The notes: generated from the letters alone by a model not told the origin. DNA of 64,000 bases from Candidatus Giovannonibacteria bacterium (GCA_016432405.1 CP066687.1:515065-579064); one strand, 5' to 3'; positions 3,202-46,759 are shown, counted from the first letter of the stretch. Numbers and translations: made by a program.

Positions 3202-6200
3202 TTATAGTATTCTACGCAACCACTCTCCGGTGTATGATTTTTTGTGGGAGGCGATCTCTTTCGGGGCGCCTTCGGCGACCACCTCCCCGCCGTTGCCGCC
3301 GCCGTCCGGACCGAGGTCAATTATCCAGTCGGCGTTTTTTAAGACGTCCAAATTATGTTCAACAACCAAGACGCTGTTGCCTTTATCCACCAGTGCGGAG
3401 AGAATATTTAAAAGTTTTTGGATATCGTCAAAATGGAGGCCAGTTGTCGGCTCGTCTAAAATATAAAGAGTTCGCCCCGTGGCTTTTTTGGAAAGCTCAA
3501 ACGCGAGCTTCACTCTCTGCGCCTCGCCGCCCGAAAGCGTCGTCGCCGGCTGGCCCAGCTTCATGTATCCCAAGCCAACCTCAACGAGAGTTTTCAGGCG
3601 CTGGTCAATTTGCGGAATGTCTTTAAAAAACTTATGCGCCTCTTCTATTGATAAATCCAAAACATCGGCGATATTTTTATTTTGATACAAAATTTCCAGC
3701 GCTTCTTTATTGTACCGCTTGCCGTGGCATTCCTCGCATTCCACGTAAATATCCGGCAAAAAATACATCTCTATTTTTTTAACCCCCTGCCCTTCGCAAA
3801 CCTCGCATCTCCCGCCTTTGACATTGAAGGAGAAGCGTCCCGATTTGTATCCACGGGCGCGCGCCTCAATAGTCCGCGCGTAAATTTCGCGTATAAACGA
3901 AAACACTCCGGTGTAAGTCGCGGGGTTGGAGCGCGGCGTGCGTCCGATGGGTGACTGGTCCACCAACACCGCCTTATCAATATTTTCCAAACCCTCAATT
4001 TTTTTATGCTTGCCCGGCTCTTCTTTTGAGCCGTAAAAATATTTCAAAAGCGCCTTTGCCAAAATGTCGGAGATGAGCGAGGATTTCCCCGACCCCGAAA
4101 CTCCGGAGACGGCGACCAGCTTGCCCAAAGGAATCTTTACGTCAATATTTTTAAGATTGTGCTCGGAAGCGCCTTTGATGGTCAACTTATCCGCACTTGC
4201 CTTGGCGCTAGGTTTTGCAAGGACACGCATATTCGCCTGCTGGCGAATTGCTCTGCTCGCCCCGTCGGTCTGCGCAAGGTCTTGCAAAACCTGCGCCTTC
4301 GGCTCGCTTTTCACTTCTTTTCTGCCAGACAAATATTCCCCAGTCAAAGTTCTCGCGCGTAAAAGTTCTTTATAAGTTCCTTCAAAAATAACTTGGCCGC
4401 CGCGCTTGCCGGCGCCTGGACCCAAATCAATTATCCAATCGGCTTCCTTCATCGTCTCGGCATCGTGCTCCACAACTAATACGGTATTCCCCAAATCGCG
4501 CAAATCTTTCAGCGTTTTAATCAGCCGCGCATGGTCTCTTGCATGGAGCCCGATTGACGGCTCGTCTAAAACGTAAATCACTCCCGTCAAGGCCGAGCCG
4601 ATCTGAGTCGCAAGCCGCACCCTCTGCGCTTCGCCACCTGCCAGCGTCGTGGACTCGCGGTCTATGGTCAGGTAATCCAAACCCACCTCCAACAAAAATT
4701 CCAGCCGCCGCAAAATTTCTCTAAGCAACGGACGCAAAGCGCCACCTCCCCCAACCCCCTCCTTCGTAAGGAGGGGAATAAAAAAATTTCTTGCATCCGA
4801 AATAGTAAGAGCGGAAATCTCGGCAATATTTTTGTCGGCGTAGGTTACGGCCAGCGCTTCCGGCTTAAGCCGCCTGCCCTTGCAGACGGGGCATTGCTCC
4901 ACGCGCATGTATTTTTCTATTTCTTCTCTAGTCCATTCCGATTCCGTTTCTTTCCACCTGCGTTTCAAGTTTTCGATTACTCCTTCGAAACCGCCCGGCT
5001 CCTCGAAACCGGGTTTTGGGACTGCCAAAAAACCCGGTTTCTTCCCGCCGGGCGGTGTTGAGGAGCGAGGCGAATCACCATACAAAATTATTTTCTTTAT
5101 TTTCTCCGGCAATTTCGCGTAAGGCGTGTTTAGAGAAAATCCGTGCCTCTCCGCCAAATCAGATAAAATCCACCAATACCAGGATTGCCGCCCGACTTTG
5201 TGCGAAGCCGTTGCCCATGCCCTGATAGCTCCTTCCGCCAGTGTCAAATTTTTATTTGGGATAACCAAATCCGGCTCAACCTCCAAGGTGCTTCCCAAAC
5301 CGGTGCAATGCGGACAGGCGCCGTAGGGAGAATTGAAAGAAAAAAGGCGCGGTTCAATCTCCGGCAAAGAAACGCCGCAATCCGGGCAGGCAAAGTGCTC
5401 GGAAAAAAGCTGGTCATTTACCCCCACACCAAAATCTTTGGTGTGGGGGTTTATCAATACCAGCCCTTTCCCAATCTTCAGCGCCGTCTCCAAGGACTCG
5501 CGGAGTCGCGGCCTGTCAAGCTCCTTGTCAATGACTAATCTGTCCACCACCACTTCAATATTATGGGCTTGTTTAGGATTCAATCCGCCAGCCGGCGGAT
5601 TTTCCGCTTCGTCCAAGCGCATTATTTCTCCGTCCATCCTCACTCGCAAAAATCCTCCGCGGCGAACCATTTCCAAAATGCTTTTGTGCTCGCCTTTTTT
5701 GCCTCTGACCACGGGCGCGAAAATATCTATCCGCGAGCCGTTCTTTAACCCGCCTGCGCGGGCAGGTTTCAAAATGTGATTTAAAATTTCGTCCGCGCTC
5801 TGCCTGCCTATTTTTTTGCCGCATTTCGGACAGTGCGGCTCACCGGCACGCGCGAATAAAATACGGAGGTAATCGTAAACTTCCGTAATTGTGCCGACGG
5901 TTGAGCGCGGATTTTTTGCCACGCTTTTCTGGTCAATGGCGATGGCCGGCGAAAGGCCGGAGATGGAATCGGCTTCCGGCTTTTCTTTAACGCCCAAAAA
6001 TTGCCGCGCGTAGGAAGAAAGCGACTCCACAAACCGCCTTTCGGCTTCGGCGTAAATAGTGTCAAAAGCCAGAGATGATTTTCCGGAGCCGGAAAGCCCG
6101 GTGATAACCACGAGTTTATTTTTCGGAATATCCAAATCAATATTTTTAAGGTTATGCACCCTCGCTCCCCTAATCCTTATAAAATTTTTGCCGCTCTCTC

Positions 6201-41084: not shown

Positions 41085-41333
41085 GTGGTTAAACGTAAAG
41101 ACCCGGTATTGGAACAAAACAAAGCAGTCGTAACTCTTGCTGATTTTCTCGCCGCCTACAATAAGAGCGCGCCCGATGGTTTTCCGCGCGCGACTCCGGA
41201 GATTTTGCGGAGATTTCAAGCGGCGCACGCTTCGCTTTTTTCCGCCGGAGGCGGAAAAAACGCCAGAAATTGGTCAATAGAAAAACACAGAAAAAAACTG
41301 ATGGACTGGCTCCCCTCTTATCACGATGCTTAA
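41085..41333 (+). CDS. Hypothetical small protein
   Basis: 82 aa, GTG start, immediately upstream of and overlapping the DEAD-box helicase gene. Confidence 0.35.
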   Translation: MVKRKDPVLEQNKAVVTLADFLAAYNKSAPDGFPRATPEILRRFQAAHASLFSAGGGKNARNWSIEKHRKKLMDWLPSYHDA

Positions 41334-42564
41334 TAGAAACAACCCTGCGTCTTTCTACGGCTTGGGCATCGCCCCGGCGCTTTTGGAAATTCTTGGGCGC
41401 CTCCATTTTAAAATTCCCACCCCGATTCAGGAGCGGGCGATTCCCGTCGCCAACGAAGGGAAGGATTTAATCGGCATCGCCCAAACCGGCACCGGCAAAA
41501 CCTTGGCCTTCGGCATTCCCATGATTCAGCGTATCGCCCAGACAAAAGCCAAGGGGCTGATTCTTTTGCCGACAAGGGAGCTGGCGCTGCAGGTTGATGA
41601 AGCCATCCGAAAAATCGGGCGCACTCTGGGTCTCAAAACCGCCGTGCTCATAGGCGGCGCGGCCATGCGGCCCCAAATAGACGCCCTCCGCCGCCAGCCG
41701 CACATTATAATAGGAACGCCCGGGCGGATTATTGACCACCTGGAACAAAAAACTCTTTCTTTGGAAAAAATCGCCATACTTGTTTTAGACGAAGCGGACA
41801 GAATGCTGGATATGGGTTTCGCGCCGCAAATCAGGATAATTTTAAACAAAGTGCCGAAAGCGCGGCAGACAATGCTTTTTTCGGCAACCATGCCGGACGA
41901 TATCGTGCGCATTGCCACCCAGCACATGAAGCTTCCCTTCCGCGTGGAGATCGCGCGGCCGGGAACGGCGCCTGAAAAAGTGGCGCAGGAATTATTTATC
42001 GTAAAAAAAGAAGACAAAAATAAATTGCTGGCGAAATTGCTTTCCGAATACCGCGGTTCGGTTTTGATTTTTTCGCGCACAAAATACGGCGCGCAGAAAA
42101 TCTGCCACGCGCTGCGGAACATGGGCCACCGCGCCGCTGAAATTCATTCCAACCGTTCGCTTGGCCAGCGCCGGGAAGCGCTGGAAGGGTTTAAGTCCGG
42201 CAGATACCGCGTGCTTGTGGCAACGGACATCGCCTCGCGCGGAATTGATGTCGTGGGGATTGAAGTGGTTATCAATTACGATTTACCTGATGACCCCGGA
42301 GATTATGTCCATAGGATTGGAAGAACCGGCAGAGCTGGCGCGCCCGGGCGGGCGATTTCTTTCGCCACACCCGACCAAAAAAGCGCCGTCCGCGATATTG
42401 AAAAACTTCTCCGCACGGCGATTGCCATATCAAAGCACCCGGAATTTTCGGAAGAGAAATTTATAGAATACAAAATTATCCCGCGTCATTTTTCACATAA
42501 GCGCTTCGGCCGGGGCTTTTCGCGCCCGTCCTACGGCGGCAGAGGCGGATTTTTCAGGAAATAA
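41326..42564 (+). CDS. ATP-dependent DEAD-box RNA helicase
   Basis: 412 aa. Motifs AQTGTGKT, DEAD, SAT, HRIGRTGRAG. Short basic C-tail. Confidence 0.95.
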   Translation: MLNRNNPASFYGLGIAPALLEILGRLHFKIPTPIQERAIPVANEGKDLIGIAQTGTGKTLAFGIPMIQRIAQTKAKGLILLPTRELALQVDEAIRKIGRTLGLKTAVLIGGAAMRPQIDALRRQPHIIIGTPGRIIDHLEQKTLSLEKIAILVLDEADRMLDMGFAPQIRIILNKVPKARQTMLFSATMPDDIVRIATQHMKLPFRVEIARPGTAPEKVAQELFIVKKEDKNKLLAKLLSEYRGSVLIFSRTKYGAQKICHALRNMGHRAAEIHSNRSLGQRREALEGFKSGRYRVLVATDIASRGIDVVGIEVVINYDLPDDPGDYVHRIGRTGRAGAPGRAISFATPDQKSAVRDIEKLLRTAIAISKHPEFSEEKFIEYKIIPRHFSHKRFGRGFSRPSYGGRGGFFRK

Positions 42565-42651
42565 AATAAAAGCCATTAAATAAATAAAAGTGTATAGGTT
42601 GACTCAAAAGTAAATAAACGCTAAGTTTTGGATAGAAACGGAGGTGCAGCC

Positions 42652-43023
42652 ATGTCAGTAAGAGGAATGATACGAAAGGAGCTTGAGAAAAAATTAAAGG
42701 AGCATCGGAAAGAGGCCTCCCGCTTGGCAAAAGACCTTGGCTACCTAAAACGCGCAAGATACCTCGCTTTCTACGTGTTCATCGGAACCGGATGGGAAGA
42801 ACGAGCCCCAAAAATTCACTTTAAGGCCCGCGGCGAATTGAAAAACGTAATGTGCGCCGCTCTTGAAGAATTCAAGCGCAAAAACGGCAATGGCGCCGCG
42901 CAGGGCAAATATGTATGCGTGGTAACGGCGCTACTGCCAAACGGCAATCCGGTTTTTATCCATGACAAATTTTTCAAGTCCTATCTTGAGAAATACGGCA
43001 AACCCTCCCAGCCCGGCGCCTAG
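42652..43023 (+). CDS. Hypothetical protein
   Basis: 123 aa from the ATG at 42652 with SD GGAGGTG. Intrinsic terminator GCCCG...CGGGC plus T7 at 43012-43038. Confidence 0.55.
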   Translation: MSVRGMIRKELEKKLKEHRKEASRLAKDLGYLKRARYLAFYVFIGTGWEERAPKIHFKARGELKNVMCAALEEFKRKNGNGAAQGKYVCVVTALLPNGNPVFIHDKFFKSYLEKYGKPSQPGA

Positions 43024-43076
43024 CTCGGGCTTTTTTTAATATGATAAAATAAGGAGATAATGTTAAAAACGTAATT

Positions 43077-43154
43077 ATGGACATAGTATCGCACAAGCTT
43101 TGGGGAAGCGCGGTGTTCGGAAGAAAAATTAAAAAACGCAAAAACGCGCTTTAA
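43077..43154 (+). pseudogene. Remnant mini-ORF: N-terminus plus C-terminus of the downstream hydrolase gene
   Basis: MDIVSHKLWGSAVFGRKIKKRKNAL*. Compare MDIISHGLW...VIKKRKNAL* of the 43254-43799 gene. Followed by the same 78-bp downstream repeat. Confidence 0.5.
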
Positions 43155-43208
43155 AATCTATACTACGCAAGTTGGACGATAGGCTAGAATACGTAGTATG
43201 CGTATTAA
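43131..43208. repeat. 78-bp direct repeat, copy 1 (contains internal 8-bp IR ATACTACG/CGTAGTAT)
   Basis: AAAAAACGCAAAAACGCGCTTTAAAATCTATACTACGCAAGTTGGACGATAGGCTAGAATACGTAGTATGCGTATTAA. Copy 2 at 43776-43853 has 4 mismatches. Confidence 0.8.
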
Positions 43209-43253
43209 AAATAGAGAGGTGTAAAAAAAATAAAAAAGCAGTATCATTACCCA

Positions 43254-43799
43254 ATGGACATCATATCGCACGGGCTGTGGACGGGGGCGATTGCCAAAGC
43301 CGCCAACGAAAAAATAAAAAAGCCGCTCAATTTCTGGGCGGCGGTTTGGTGGGGCGTTTCCCCGGATTTGTTCGCTTTTACTATCCCGTTTTTGGGGCTT
43401 TTGTGGAATTTTACTTTCCGCGGCGTGAATCTCGCGGACATCCCAGGACCGTCCGCAACCGAGCCGCCGTCCTCCGGCACTTTATGGATTTTCCAGCTCG
43501 CGACCGTACTTTATAACATCAGCCACAGCGCCATTATTTTTTTGATTGTTTTCGGACTGGTCTGGCTGGTTCTGAAGCGCCCGGTTTGGGAGATGGGGGG
43601 ATGGATTTTCCACGTTTTTCTGGACGTGCTGACCCATTCTTTTCGTTTCTTTCCGACACCGGTCTTCTGGCCGCTTTTCGGCTGGAAATTTAACGGCATT
43701 TCCTGGGCCAATCCTCAGTTTCTTGCCATAAATTATGCTGCCCTGATTTTGCTTTATCTCTGGTTTTTTGTAATTAAAAAACGCAAAAACGCGCTTTAA
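43254..43799 (+). CDS. Membrane-bound metal-dependent hydrolase (DUF457/YdjM-like)
   Basis: 181 aa. MDIISHGLWTGAI N-terminus and His-rich TM segments typical of the family. The C-terminal codons lie inside repeat copy 2. Confidence 0.7.
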   Translation: MDIISHGLWTGAIAKAANEKIKKPLNFWAAVWWGVSPDLFAFTIPFLGLLWNFTFRGVNLADIPGPSATEPPSSGTLWIFQLATVLYNISHSAIIFLIVFGLVWLVLKRPVWEMGGWIFHVFLDVLTHSFRFFPTPVFWPLFGWKFNGISWANPQFLAINYAALILLYLWFFVIKKRKNAL

Positions 43800-43853
43800 A
43801 ATCTATACTACGCAAATTGGACGATAGGTTAAAATACGTAGTATGCGTACTAA
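43776..43853. repeat. 78-bp direct repeat, copy 2
   Basis: See copy 1. Overlaps the 3' end of the hydrolase gene. Confidence 0.8.
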
Positions 43854-43867
43854 TGAGTTAAAAAAAG

Positions 43868-44806
43868 CTAAACCTTAAGGTGGCGCTTCACCGCGAAGTA
43901 GGCCGAAAGCACGCCTAAAAGGACTCCCGAGATTAGCAAGATAAAGAAAATCTGGAAAATGTTTTCGGAAAAATACGTAAAAATATTGAATCCGCCGAAA
44001 AGCGCGGAGGTTCTTGCACCGGCAAACCAAAAAACCGGATAGAAAACCGCCAAAGTAAACGCCGCCGCTATCACCCCGTGTATCACCCCCTCAACCAAAA
44101 ACGGCCCGCGGATGAATTGGCGCGAAGCGCCGACCAATTGCATCACGGAAATCTCGTCGCGGGAATTGTAAATCGCAAGCCGCACGGTGCTGTAGGCGAC
44201 CATTAAGGATATTACCGACAAAATCAAGCTGACTGCAAGCCCGGCGCGGCGGGATGCGGCGAGGAGCGCCGAGAGCTTGTCAATCACAAACTGGTTTTGG
44301 CGGTAAGTTATTTTCTTCTCTCCCGAGTCGTCCGTATCCAAAATATTGTCGTACCGCCCGCTCTCCAAAAACTTGCTTATTGAGCCGTATTTTGCCGGGT
44401 CTTTCGCTTTTATCTCAATGCTCGGAGAAAACGGATTCTCGCCTACAACCTCCAAGGATTGCAAAATGATTTCGTCGCCCTTGTGCCGTTCCTTAAAAAC
44501 AACAAGCGCCTCCTCCGCCGAAACATATTTTACCGAGCGGACTTCCGGCAGCGCCTCCAAGTCCTTTTTGAGCGCCAAAATCTGCTCCTCTTTGGCGGAC
44601 GGCTTGAAATAAGCGCTGATGTCCACTTTTTCTTCCAAAGAAGAAATCACGCCGGAAAGAAATGAGCTCCCGACGACGACCGAACCGATCACAAAAATTG
44701 AAAGCGACATAACCAGCACCGTGGCCAAACTGACCACGCCGTTCCTGAAAAAATTAATCACCCCCCACTTCAGAATCCTTCTGAAAGTTATCTTATCCAT
44801 CGCCAT
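43868..44806 (-). CDS. ftsX: Cell division ABC transporter permease FtsX
   Basis: 312 aa. N-terminal TM, large extracellular loop, three C-terminal TMs. Follows ftsE. Confidence 0.88.
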   Translation of the reverse strand: MAMDKITFRRILKWGVINFFRNGVVSLATVLVMSLSIFVIGSVVVGSSFLSGVISSLEEKVDISAYFKPSAKEEQILALKKDLEALPEVRSVKYVSAEEALVVFKERHKGDEIILQSLEVVGENPFSPSIEIKAKDPAKYGSISKFLESGRYDNILDTDDSGEKKITYRQNQFVIDKLSALLAASRRAGLAVSLILSVISLMVAYSTVRLAIYNSRDEISVMQLVGASRQFIRGPFLVEGVIHGVIAAAFTLAVFYPVFWFAGARTSALFGGFNIFTYFSENIFQIFFILLISGVLLGVLSAYFAVKRHLKV

Positions 44807-44813
44807 TATTCAA

Positions 44814-45494
44814 TTATAGCACATATCTCCCGCGCTGTTCGTCTCGGACGACTTTGCCTTTTTCCAGCGTCACCACCCGGCGCTCCAGAGAATTGATGAT
44901 TTCCTTGTCGTGGGTGGCCAAAATAACCGTCGTGCCCAAGTCGTTTATTTTTTCCAGAAGGCGGATTATATCCCAGGTATTTAAAGGGTCCAAATTCCCC
45001 GTCGGCTCATCGGCGATAACGACGTCCGGGCGGGTCACAATGGCGCGGGCGATGGCGACGCGCTGTTTTTCGCCGCCGGAAAGTTCGTGCGGGAAATGCC
45101 AGGCCTTGTCCATAAGTCCCACAAGCTCCAAAACCTGCGGAGCGTCCTGTTTTATGTCGTCATCGCCTTTTCCGGCCGCCTCAAGCGCGAACGAAACGTT
45201 TTCGTAAGCGGTTTTTTGCGGCAGGAGCCGGTAGTCCTGAAACACAACGCCCATTCGCCTGCGCAGCGCCGGGAGCTCTCCCGGAGGGACGGCGTGCACG
45301 TCGCTGGATTCAAAAAAGACCTTGCCCGATGTGGGCCGGTCTTCGGCCAAAAGCAGCTTCAAAAGCGTGGATTTGCCGGCGCCGGACTGCCCGACTATTG
45401 AAACAAACTCGTTCGGCGAAATCGCAAACGAAACATCCTCAAGGGCAATTGAGGTCGGAGAATAAACTTTTGAGACCTTATCAAAATAAATCAT
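44814..45494 (-). CDS. ftsE: Cell division ATP-binding protein FtsE
   Basis: 226 aa. Walker [16 protein letters not shown] signature [14 protein letters not shown], Walker [13 protein letters not shown]. Confidence 0.95.
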
Positions 45495-46558: not shown

Positions 46559-46607
46559 ATTCAAAGCATATCATAAATCCCAAAAAAATGCTAGAAAAGA
46601 AGAGCGG

Positions 46608-46680
46608 GCCACCTTAGCTCAGTTGGCAGAGCAATGCTTTCGTAAAGCAGAGGTCCCCGGTTCGAATCCGGGAGGTGGCT
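46608..46680 (+). tRNA. tRNA-Thr (anticodon CGU)
   Basis: Acceptor GCCACCT/AGGTGGC, D-arm GCTC-AGTTGGCA-GAGC, anticodon loop TTCGTAA, T-arm CCCGG-TTCGAAT-CCGGG. Confidence 0.9.
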
Positions 46681-46688
46681 AAAAAAGC

Positions 46689-46759
46689 GCGGGTATAGTT
46701 TAGTGGCAGAATGATTGCTTCCCAAGCAATAGATCGGGGTTCGATTCCCCGTACCCGCA
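46689..46759 (+). tRNA. tRNA-Gly (anticodon CCC)
   Basis: Acceptor GCGGGTA/TACCCGC, anticodon arm ATTGC-TTCCCAA-GCAAT, T-arm CGGGG-TTCGATT-CCCCG. 8 nt after tRNA-Thr. Confidence 0.85.

Follow-up and report, generated by a model that had tools for sequence, protein, structure and literature searches.

A probable decaying tandem array of two divergent YdjM-like hydrolase paralogs beside ftsX in a Candidatus Giovannonibacteria genome

Introduction

Pseudogenes that arise by short-homology deletion in reductive bacterial genomes keep both ends of the gene, lose the middle and carry an A-rich repeat at the junction, and the same gene can be lost independently in several relatives. Tandem paralog arrays that are remodelled by unequal crossing-over or gene conversion leave a different signature, in which a leader and its gene lie between direct repeats, chimeric genes stand at the repeat boundary, and gene tails are homogenised while the bodies have diverged. 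The YdjM/DUF457 proteins are LexA-regulated inner-membrane putative metal-dependent hydrolases with MDxxSH and THS histidine motifs and a hydrophobic multi-helix layout; enterobacterial members of the YdjM-like family are SOS-regulated, and Salmonella ydjM has two LexA boxes (PMC8072944). Hairpin-forming sequences that follow a stop codon or recur as direct repeats are found among Rho-independent terminators, REP and MITE elements and attC sites.

The locus described here lies in a stretch of 64,000 nucleotides from a Candidatus Giovannonibacteria bacterium (CP066687.1:515065-579064; hereafter the window) and shares features with each of these systems. Like the pseudogenes of reductive genomes, it contains a gene stub with both ends kept, the middle lost and an A-rich repeat at the junction, from a gene that was also lost independently in four relatives (L012, L014, L008 and L006); unlike the usual cases, the stub is in frame and lies inside what is probably a tandem paralog array. 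Like remodelled arrays, it has direct repeats that bound a leader and gene unit and, at the repeat boundary, a chimeric gene whose body and tail belong to two different clades (TGA-type and GRK-type, respectively), the tails being homogenised and the bodies diverged. Unlike such arrays, the window keeps a single intact gene, and an intact array was found in no genome examined. The protein has the histidine motifs and hydrophobic multi-helix layout of YdjM/DUF457 members but scores under the Pfam cut-off. Finally, a sequence able to form a hairpin stands after the stop codon and is repeated directly; unlike a Rho-independent terminator, it has neither a T-run nor a G+C-rich stem, and unlike REP, MITE or attC elements it is present in two copies in 64 kb and, in public metagenomes, at the orthologous locus only.

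We consider it likely that the locus represents a tandem array, now in decay, of two divergent YdjM-like hydrolase paralogs, situated in a hypervariable and deletion-prone slot between the helicase gene or bipA on one side and ftsX on the other. The case is one of known processes, namely pseudogene decay by short-homology deletion together with remodelling of a tandem paralog array, and is ordinary reductive evolution; it leaves current understanding unchanged.

Results

An intact hydrolase gene and the stub of a second one

The intact gene of the locus (43254-43799, + strand) encodes a 181-aa membrane hydrolase, with which a hypothetical protein from a metagenome-assembled Candidatus Giovannonibacteria genome agrees at 100% identity. 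The alignment of the window protein to the Pfam family YdjM (PF04307) is full-length (residues 1-168 on profile positions 1-166 of 176) but weak, at 19.7 bits against a cut-off (gathering threshold) of 29. A related protein from locus L007 reaches 23.6 bits, likewise under the cut-off, and many homologs at 45-58% identity have a precomputed PF04307 match. The window protein is a divergent relative of YdjM/DUF457 rather than a certified member of PF04307.

The hydrolase family divides into two clades, between which amino acid identity is 36-52%; the motifs MDIxSH, N[IV][ST]HS and D[IV]xTHS are kept in both. TGA-type proteins, which include the intact window protein, begin MDIISHGLWTGAIAKA and share 57-85% identity within the clade. 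GRK-type proteins, among them that of L007, begin MDIxSHGLWGxxAFGRK, are about 15 aa shorter and share 51-75% identity.

Upstream of the intact gene there is, as the original prediction stated, a mini-ORF of 25 codons (43077-43154, + strand) with the product MDIVSHKLWGSAVFGRKIKKRKNAL. It had been described as a fusion of the first nine and the last nine residues of the full gene. The shared C-terminus comprises eight residues (IKKRKNAL, stub residues 18-25) and not nine, the N-terminal nine agree at 7/9 positions, and residues 10-17 (GSAVFGRK) show no relation to the neighbouring gene and are assigned to the GRK-type clade. The likeness of the first nine stub residues to the neighbour is due solely to MDIxSHxLW, the N-terminal motif of the whole hydrolase family.

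The affiliation of the stub is clear at the nucleotide level. Its codons 1-17 (51 nt, 43077-43127, of which the last base doubles as the first base of the direct repeat described below) match the GRK-type genes of L012, L007 and L005 at 41/51, 38/51 and 37/51 positions, respectively, compared to 29/51 for the adjacent TGA-type gene. Within codons 10-17 the same comparisons give 19/24, 17/24 and 16/24 for the GRK-type genes and 7/24, which is chance level, for the adjacent gene (Fisher p = 0.001, L012 versus the adjacent gene). At the protein level, the 17 N-terminal residues agree with those of P0119 at 13/17 positions and with those of the neighbour at 8/17.

The stub consists of a 5′ remnant of a GRK-type YdjM-like hydrolase paralog (codons 1-17; 43077-43126, + strand), fused in frame to the last eight codons, its 3′ 28 nt being the tail of the hydrolase family. 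The junction (AGAAAAA joined to TTAAAAAAC) falls between A-rich stretches that are found near both ends of intact GRK-type genes, AAAAAATAAAAAA in codons 17-20 and AATTAAAAAAC in the tail (L005/L012). As in other internally deleted pseudogenes, the stub has homology to full-length relatives at its two ends, lacks the middle and shows short homology at the junction. The stub is the dead remnant of a second, divergent (GRK-type) hydrolase gene that probably once stood in tandem with the intact one. An internal deletion of ~420 nt in this upstream paralog would have joined codon 17 to the last eight codons, and the A-rich junction is of the kind typical of short-homology deletion.

These results bear directly on the history that had been proposed for the locus, in which the intact gene and its downstream region were duplicated in tandem and the first copy then suffered an internal deletion. 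Taken as a recent duplication, with stub and full gene derived from one and the same gene, such a history would account for the 95% identity of the repeat copies and for a stub that starts MDIVSH and ends IKKRKNAL like the full gene. It is contradicted by codons 10-17, which match the GRK-type genes and not the neighbour, by the sequence upstream of the stub (43032-43076), which is unlike the spacer upstream of the full gene, and by the age of the duplication, which is older than the split from L006 (see below). We regard a recent duplication as very unlikely. What stands of the proposal is that the stub is an internally deleted hydrolase gene and that the repeat goes back to duplication or recombination long ago rather than to chance; a copy of the adjacent gene the stub is not. 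It mimics a fresh duplication because its 3′ end was duplicated with that of its neighbour. The case therefore carries a caution, since an apparent fresh duplication with a deletion proved to be the remains of two old paralogs with homogenised ends.

A direct repeat composed of a gene tail and an upstream region

The stub and the intact gene are each followed by the same sequence, as had been noted; the direct repeat (43127-43208 and 43772-43853, both + strand) is not 78 bp long, however, but 82 nt, of which 78 are identical (95%; BLAST E 9e-35). Its first 28 nt are the coding 3′ end of the hydrolase genes (KKRKNAL plus the stop codon) and are identical at 28/28 positions, while the 54 nt after the stop agree at 50/54; all four mismatches (43171, 43184, 43187 and 43205) are non-coding. 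Copy 1 is made up of the 28-nt gene tail, a relic of the start of a gene that we call MRWVKI after its first residues (ACGCGCTTTAAAATC), and a 54-nt core. The 3′ 30 nt of copy 2 are kept beside ftsX in L006. The core has two copies only in the 64-kb window, and none of 100 shuffles yielded any match.

The 8-bp inverted repeat that had been reported within the repeat (ATACTACG/CGTAGTAT) was found in both copies, at 43160-67/43192-99 and at 43805-12/43837-44, and the arrangement ATACTACG-N24-CGTAGTAT is absent from the rest of the window. In its 24-nt spacing, this inverted repeat is unlike known LexA boxes. The core is predicted to fold into a weak, AU-rich stem of 9-11 bp with a 24-nt loop (z-scores -0.9 to -2.8), and no T-run follows. 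Among four core sequences there were no compensatory pairs, although three stem substitutions retain G-U pairing on the + strand (p ~0.125). Searches of Rfam returned no relevant family, either for window positions 42000-45000 at E up to 10 or for L007, L012 and L014 at the gathering score.

Several familiar identities for the repeat were considered and rejected. The suggestion that it is a terminator fails on the missing T-run and the weak AU-rich stem, which in the repeat has 9 bp and fold z-scores of -0.9 to -2.0; a scan of the + strand finds no intrinsic terminator in the repeat. Nor is it primarily a downstream element, since in L007 and L014 the same sequence lies upstream of a hydrolase gene and adjoins the same spacer and promoter. 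A dispersed repeat of the MITE, REP or attC kind was set aside on the two copies in the window and the occurrence elsewhere at orthologous loci only. The repeat does contain GTTGGAC (ATTGGAC in copy 2), but in the middle of the element, whereas attC core sites are expected at the ends. A pattern scan of public metagenomes recovered the core solely at the orthologous locus, in three lineages, and a scan of viral contigs recovered none. Comparison of the core with the bodies of the PCMT and MRWVKI genes showed no similarity beyond AAAATC(TA).

The composition of the repeat is explained by its relatives. In L007 and L014 the 54-nt core and a 45-nt spacer are contiguous, present in single copy and placed directly upstream of the hydrolase ATG (L007/L015 versus window 43133-43260, 86% over 128 nt; L014, 88-93%). 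In both loci A[CT]G[CT]G[CT][CT]TTAAA[AG]TC comes before the core; it is a decayed form of AAAAATGCGCTGGGTTAAAATC, the junction at which a hydrolase stop codon overlaps the MRWVKI start and which is intact in L012, L001 and L008. Because of this arrangement and the decayed junction, the repeat is to be read as a gene tail, a relic of the MRWVKI start and the upstream region of the next hydrolase gene. A comparison with related genomes for single-copy and duplicated states had been suggested; it shows the core as a single copy in L007 and L014 and a gene of the GRK type beside ftsX in L005 and L007.

The MRWVKI product is a conserved multi-pass membrane protein of 471-493 aa with no Pfam family (L012 2802-4217, L008 3740-5221, L001 717-1868), and its start codon overlaps the hydrolase stop. 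The gene has been lost from the window, L007 and L014, where its start relic alone remains.

A conserved leader with a predicted promoter

The spacer of the window (43209-43253, + strand) contains a candidate promoter of the intact gene, in which TGTAAA (43220-25) and TATCAT (43242-47) are separated by 16 nt and the latter is followed after 6 nt by the ATG. The spacer is conserved upstream of hydrolase genes in L007, L014, L002/L003 and L016, and its 3′ part is kept upstream of the TGA-type genes of L002, L003 and L016. A -10 hexamer TATAAT, to which the TATCAT of the window corresponds, lies exactly 6 nt before the ATG in L007, L014, L002 and L016, with a TGTAAA or TAGAAA hexamer 16 nt farther upstream; the L007 match, TAGAAA-16-TATAAT, scores 10/12. 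From this conservation, the spacer probably holds a promoter that would give a leaderless hydrolase mRNA. A leader in which the -10 box abuts the ATG offers a usable example for work on promoters and leaderless transcripts in uncultivated bacteria of the Candidate Phyla Radiation (CPR). A second, sigma-70-like pair within the repeat (TTAAAA-17-TAAAAT, 43129-43157 and 43774-43802) is not conserved in L007 or L014 and was rejected as a promoter.

Between the window and L014, identity is 91-93% in the core, compared to 75% at the nucleotide level in ftsX (binomial p ~9e-4), and the nucleotide conservation of the core exceeds that of neighbouring essential genes. The core is probably under constraint. 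In L007 it sits between an upstream terminator and the promoter, which would speak for a site at the DNA level (an operator, an activator site or an UP element, for example) rather than an RNA element. The same intergenic region of L007, between bipA and the leader (5572-5740, minus strand), contains two strong hairpins, including a terminator-like CCCGC..GCGGG with a T-run; no Rfam family was found there, and the region could encode a small RNA or act as a compound terminator.

A further reading joins the leader to the gene tails. According to it, core and spacer would form an undescribed cis-regulatory module for YdjM-like genes, perhaps lineage-specific to Giovannonibacteria, in which a site of the operator or activator kind, or else an RNA hairpin, would precede a leaderless promoter, and the near-identical gene tails of ~50 nt would serve as recombination handles that may let divergent paralogs be swapped or duplicated at the locus. 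We offer this joint reading tentatively, and as a whole it is rather unlikely. The conserved leader is the only residue of the case that is of interest and novel, and only mildly so.

The order of short ORF, hairpin and gene also resembles an attenuator, in which the mini-ORF would be a functional leader peptide or uORF that acts with the hairpin to attenuate hydrolase expression; the deletion in the stub is in frame. In L007 and L014, however, core and spacer occur without an equivalent ORF, and the deletion relics in L012, L014 and L008 differ in frame and junction. The hairpin has no T-run, and an AAGGAG is 20 nt from the ATG, too distant for a Shine-Dalgarno site. A function of the mini-ORF as a leader peptide is scarcely credible.

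Shared gene tails and an old duplication

The proteins P0001 and P0002 end in LYLWFFVIKKRKNAL, as GRK-type proteins do, while the remaining TGA-type proteins end differently; the GRK-type tail is carried by the intact TGA-type gene of the window and by its closest relative, P0002. The last 47 nt of the window gene (43744-43790) are identical at 46/47 positions to the GRK-type gene of L005 (2091-2137), across the boundary between the paralog clades. Since ftsX is only 71.5% identical at the nucleotide level between the window and L005 (p ~3e-6 for the contrast), the tails have been exchanged or homogenised. These shared tails point to tail exchange or to constraint at the nucleotide level.

To date the duplication, the differences between the two repeat copies were polarised with L007, L014 and L006. 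Two of the four are derived in copy 1 and two in copy 2, and both of the bases derived in copy 2 are also present in the fragment kept in L006. Because it shares these bases, L006, a deletion derivative, holds the ortholog of copy 2, and the duplication is therefore an old one, from before L006 and the window genome separated.

The shared bases also argue against an assembly artefact, in which the repeat would have been mis-joined or expanded in a metagenome-assembled genome. The source is indeed such a genome, and the collections contain no second assembly of the same strain, an exact look-up of the window protein having returned no record. Against an artefact, the copies differ at four sites and in their flanks and lie on a contig of 651 kb with the locus tag HYW15_03350; L006 independently has the 3′ half of copy 2 beside ftsX, and L007/L015 and L014 independently have the order core, spacer, ATG. 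An artefact is extremely unlikely.

The second repeat copy would most likely have arisen by unequal homologous recombination in the near-identical 3′ tails of adjacent paralogs. The crossover would have produced gene 1 followed by core and spacer, then chimeric gene 2, again followed by core and spacer, and at the end gene 3; gene 1 would afterwards have been gutted and gene 3, the unit downstream of copy 2, deleted, giving the state seen in the window. A crossover in the tails would also account for the GRK-type tail on the intact TGA-type gene. The direct repeats and the chimeric tail are present, and the later deletion fixes the left edge of the repeat. For the third unit there are only hints, from relics at 43854-43867 and in L006 that agree with a lost gene 3 and are weak. 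Between copy 2 and the ftsX stop there is an A-rich residue (43854-43867, + strand) in which AAAAAAGC matches the spacer, and L006 retains TTAAAAATGGG and GGGTTAAAAT at the equivalent position; judging from these A-rich matches of 9-11 nt, the residue could be what is left of a second spacer and of the lost third gene.

No intact tandem of GRK-type gene, core, spacer and TGA-type gene was found among the genomes examined, and for this reason the ancestral array is one that we infer. L001, the closest TGA-type relative, has the chimeric tail and an intact MRWVKI gene and lacks the core. A single crossover is therefore insufficient; more than one event would be needed, and their order is not uniquely reconstructible.

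The same structure could have been produced by lateral acquisition in place of an exchange between sister chromatids, if circular or linear DNA carrying tail, core, spacer and TGA-type gene had integrated into the tail of a resident GRK-type gene, by a Campbell-type or a homology-facilitated event. TGA-type genes do occur in unrelated contexts (L001, L002, L016 and L017), sometimes with the same spacer promoter, GRK-type genes are the residents beside ftsX in L005 and L007, and the near-identical tails across genomes would supply the homology. Yet the ORFs of 41.5-45.5 kb include no mobile-element genes and the flanks are housekeeping genes; a search among the ORFs within ~1.5 kb on either side likewise found no recombinase gene. 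The core was recovered in three lineages, each time at this locus only, and was absent from the viral contigs scanned, and the product of integration would be structurally the same as that of an unequal crossover. We judge lateral acquisition to be decidedly unlikely and retain the crossover between adjacent paralogs as the proposed mechanism.

A hot spot of gene loss beside ftsX

Loci of relatives were compared by synteny, using ftsX-anchored contigs, protein-anchored contigs and a metagenome pattern scan. In the window, ftsX (43868-44806, - strand), which is convergent with the hydrolase gene, serves as the synteny anchor; ftsE and prfB are, with it, on the opposite strand. On the other side lie a DEAD-box helicase gene (41326-42564) and an ORF of 131 aa with no Pfam family (42628-43023, + strand), whose homolog (60% amino acid identity) stands upstream of bipA in L009. 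The ORF ends in an intrinsic terminator (43010-43038, + strand; AGCCCGG..CGGGCT followed by T7), and the same terminator hairpin follows the homologous ORF in L009. Neither the window nor L006 has bipA itself at this locus. At the position that it occupies in L009, L005, L012 and L017, the window has a 15-nt sequence (43038-43052, + strand; AATATGATAAAATAA) that matches the end of L008 bipA (AATCTGATAAAATAA) at 14/15 positions; going by this short match, the sequence may be what remains of the final 15 nt of bipA and a scar of its deletion.

Among the loci that still hold a hydrolase gene beside ftsX, the GRK-type gene is the usual neighbour. Full-length GRK-type genes abut convergent ftsX in L005, which has bipA, the full gene and ftsX, and in L007 (= L015), which has the DEAD-box helicase gene, bipA, a terminator, core and spacer, the full gene and ftsX. 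L012 has bipA, a broken GRK-type gene, the 471-aa MRWVKI membrane gene and ftsX; the broken gene (4216-4453, minus strand) is without residues 44-125 and has a frameshift at the junction, and this deletion is independent of that in the window. In L008 the hydrolase gene is cut to its ATG, joined to AATGAAAAAATGCGC, and its fusion with the MRWVKI gene, which is in frame, reads MNEKMRWVKI (5195-5225, minus strand). L014 has bipA, a GDSL-like lipase pseudogene, a tail relic, core and spacer, ATGGACATTGTTTCGCATG joined to AAAAAATGCGCCGGGTTAA, and ftsX, so that MDIVSH is fused to the relic of tail and MRWVKI start (2118-2160) directly beside ftsX. L012, L014 and L008 raise to at least three the other genomes with independent deletion relics of the same gene. 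L009 contains the homolog of the 131-aa ORF, bipA and ftsX. In L006, the closest relative (87-90% nucleotide identity and collinear with the window), the helicase stop is followed by ~71 nt and the ftsX stop; the whole 1.29-kb block to which the 131-aa ORF belongs has been deleted, and the equivalent of window 42565-43824 is missing. TGA-type genes are found in the orders bipA-TGA-PCMT (L017), NYN/TGA-PCMT (L002 and L016) and TGA-MRWVKI (L001).

Given these assorted states, the slot is a hot spot of gene loss. In Giovannonibacteria, at least four independent losses of the same gene have occurred in the slot between bipA or the DEAD-box helicase gene and ftsX, each of which left a readable deletion scar, and the slot illustrates how the very small genomes of the CPR shed redundant genes.

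Some further features of these loci were recorded. Downstream of bipA, L012 (4510-4578) and L014 (1906-1974) share a non-coding block of 69 nt (GGGCTACACTTTCTTACGATCGTGATAAAGTGTATACAC...) at 93% identity. The lipase gene of L014 (1254-1865), which is GDSL/SGNH-like (PF13472), has an in-frame TGA between conserved blocks, and is either a pseudogene or affected by a sequencing error. Elsewhere in the window, tRNA-Thr(CGT) and tRNA-Gly(CCC) lie at 46607-46759; the tRNA-Gly segment is 97% identical to L006 and L009 and is in the opposite orientation relative to the flanking collinear blocks, which suggests a local inversion or a second copy of the tRNA.
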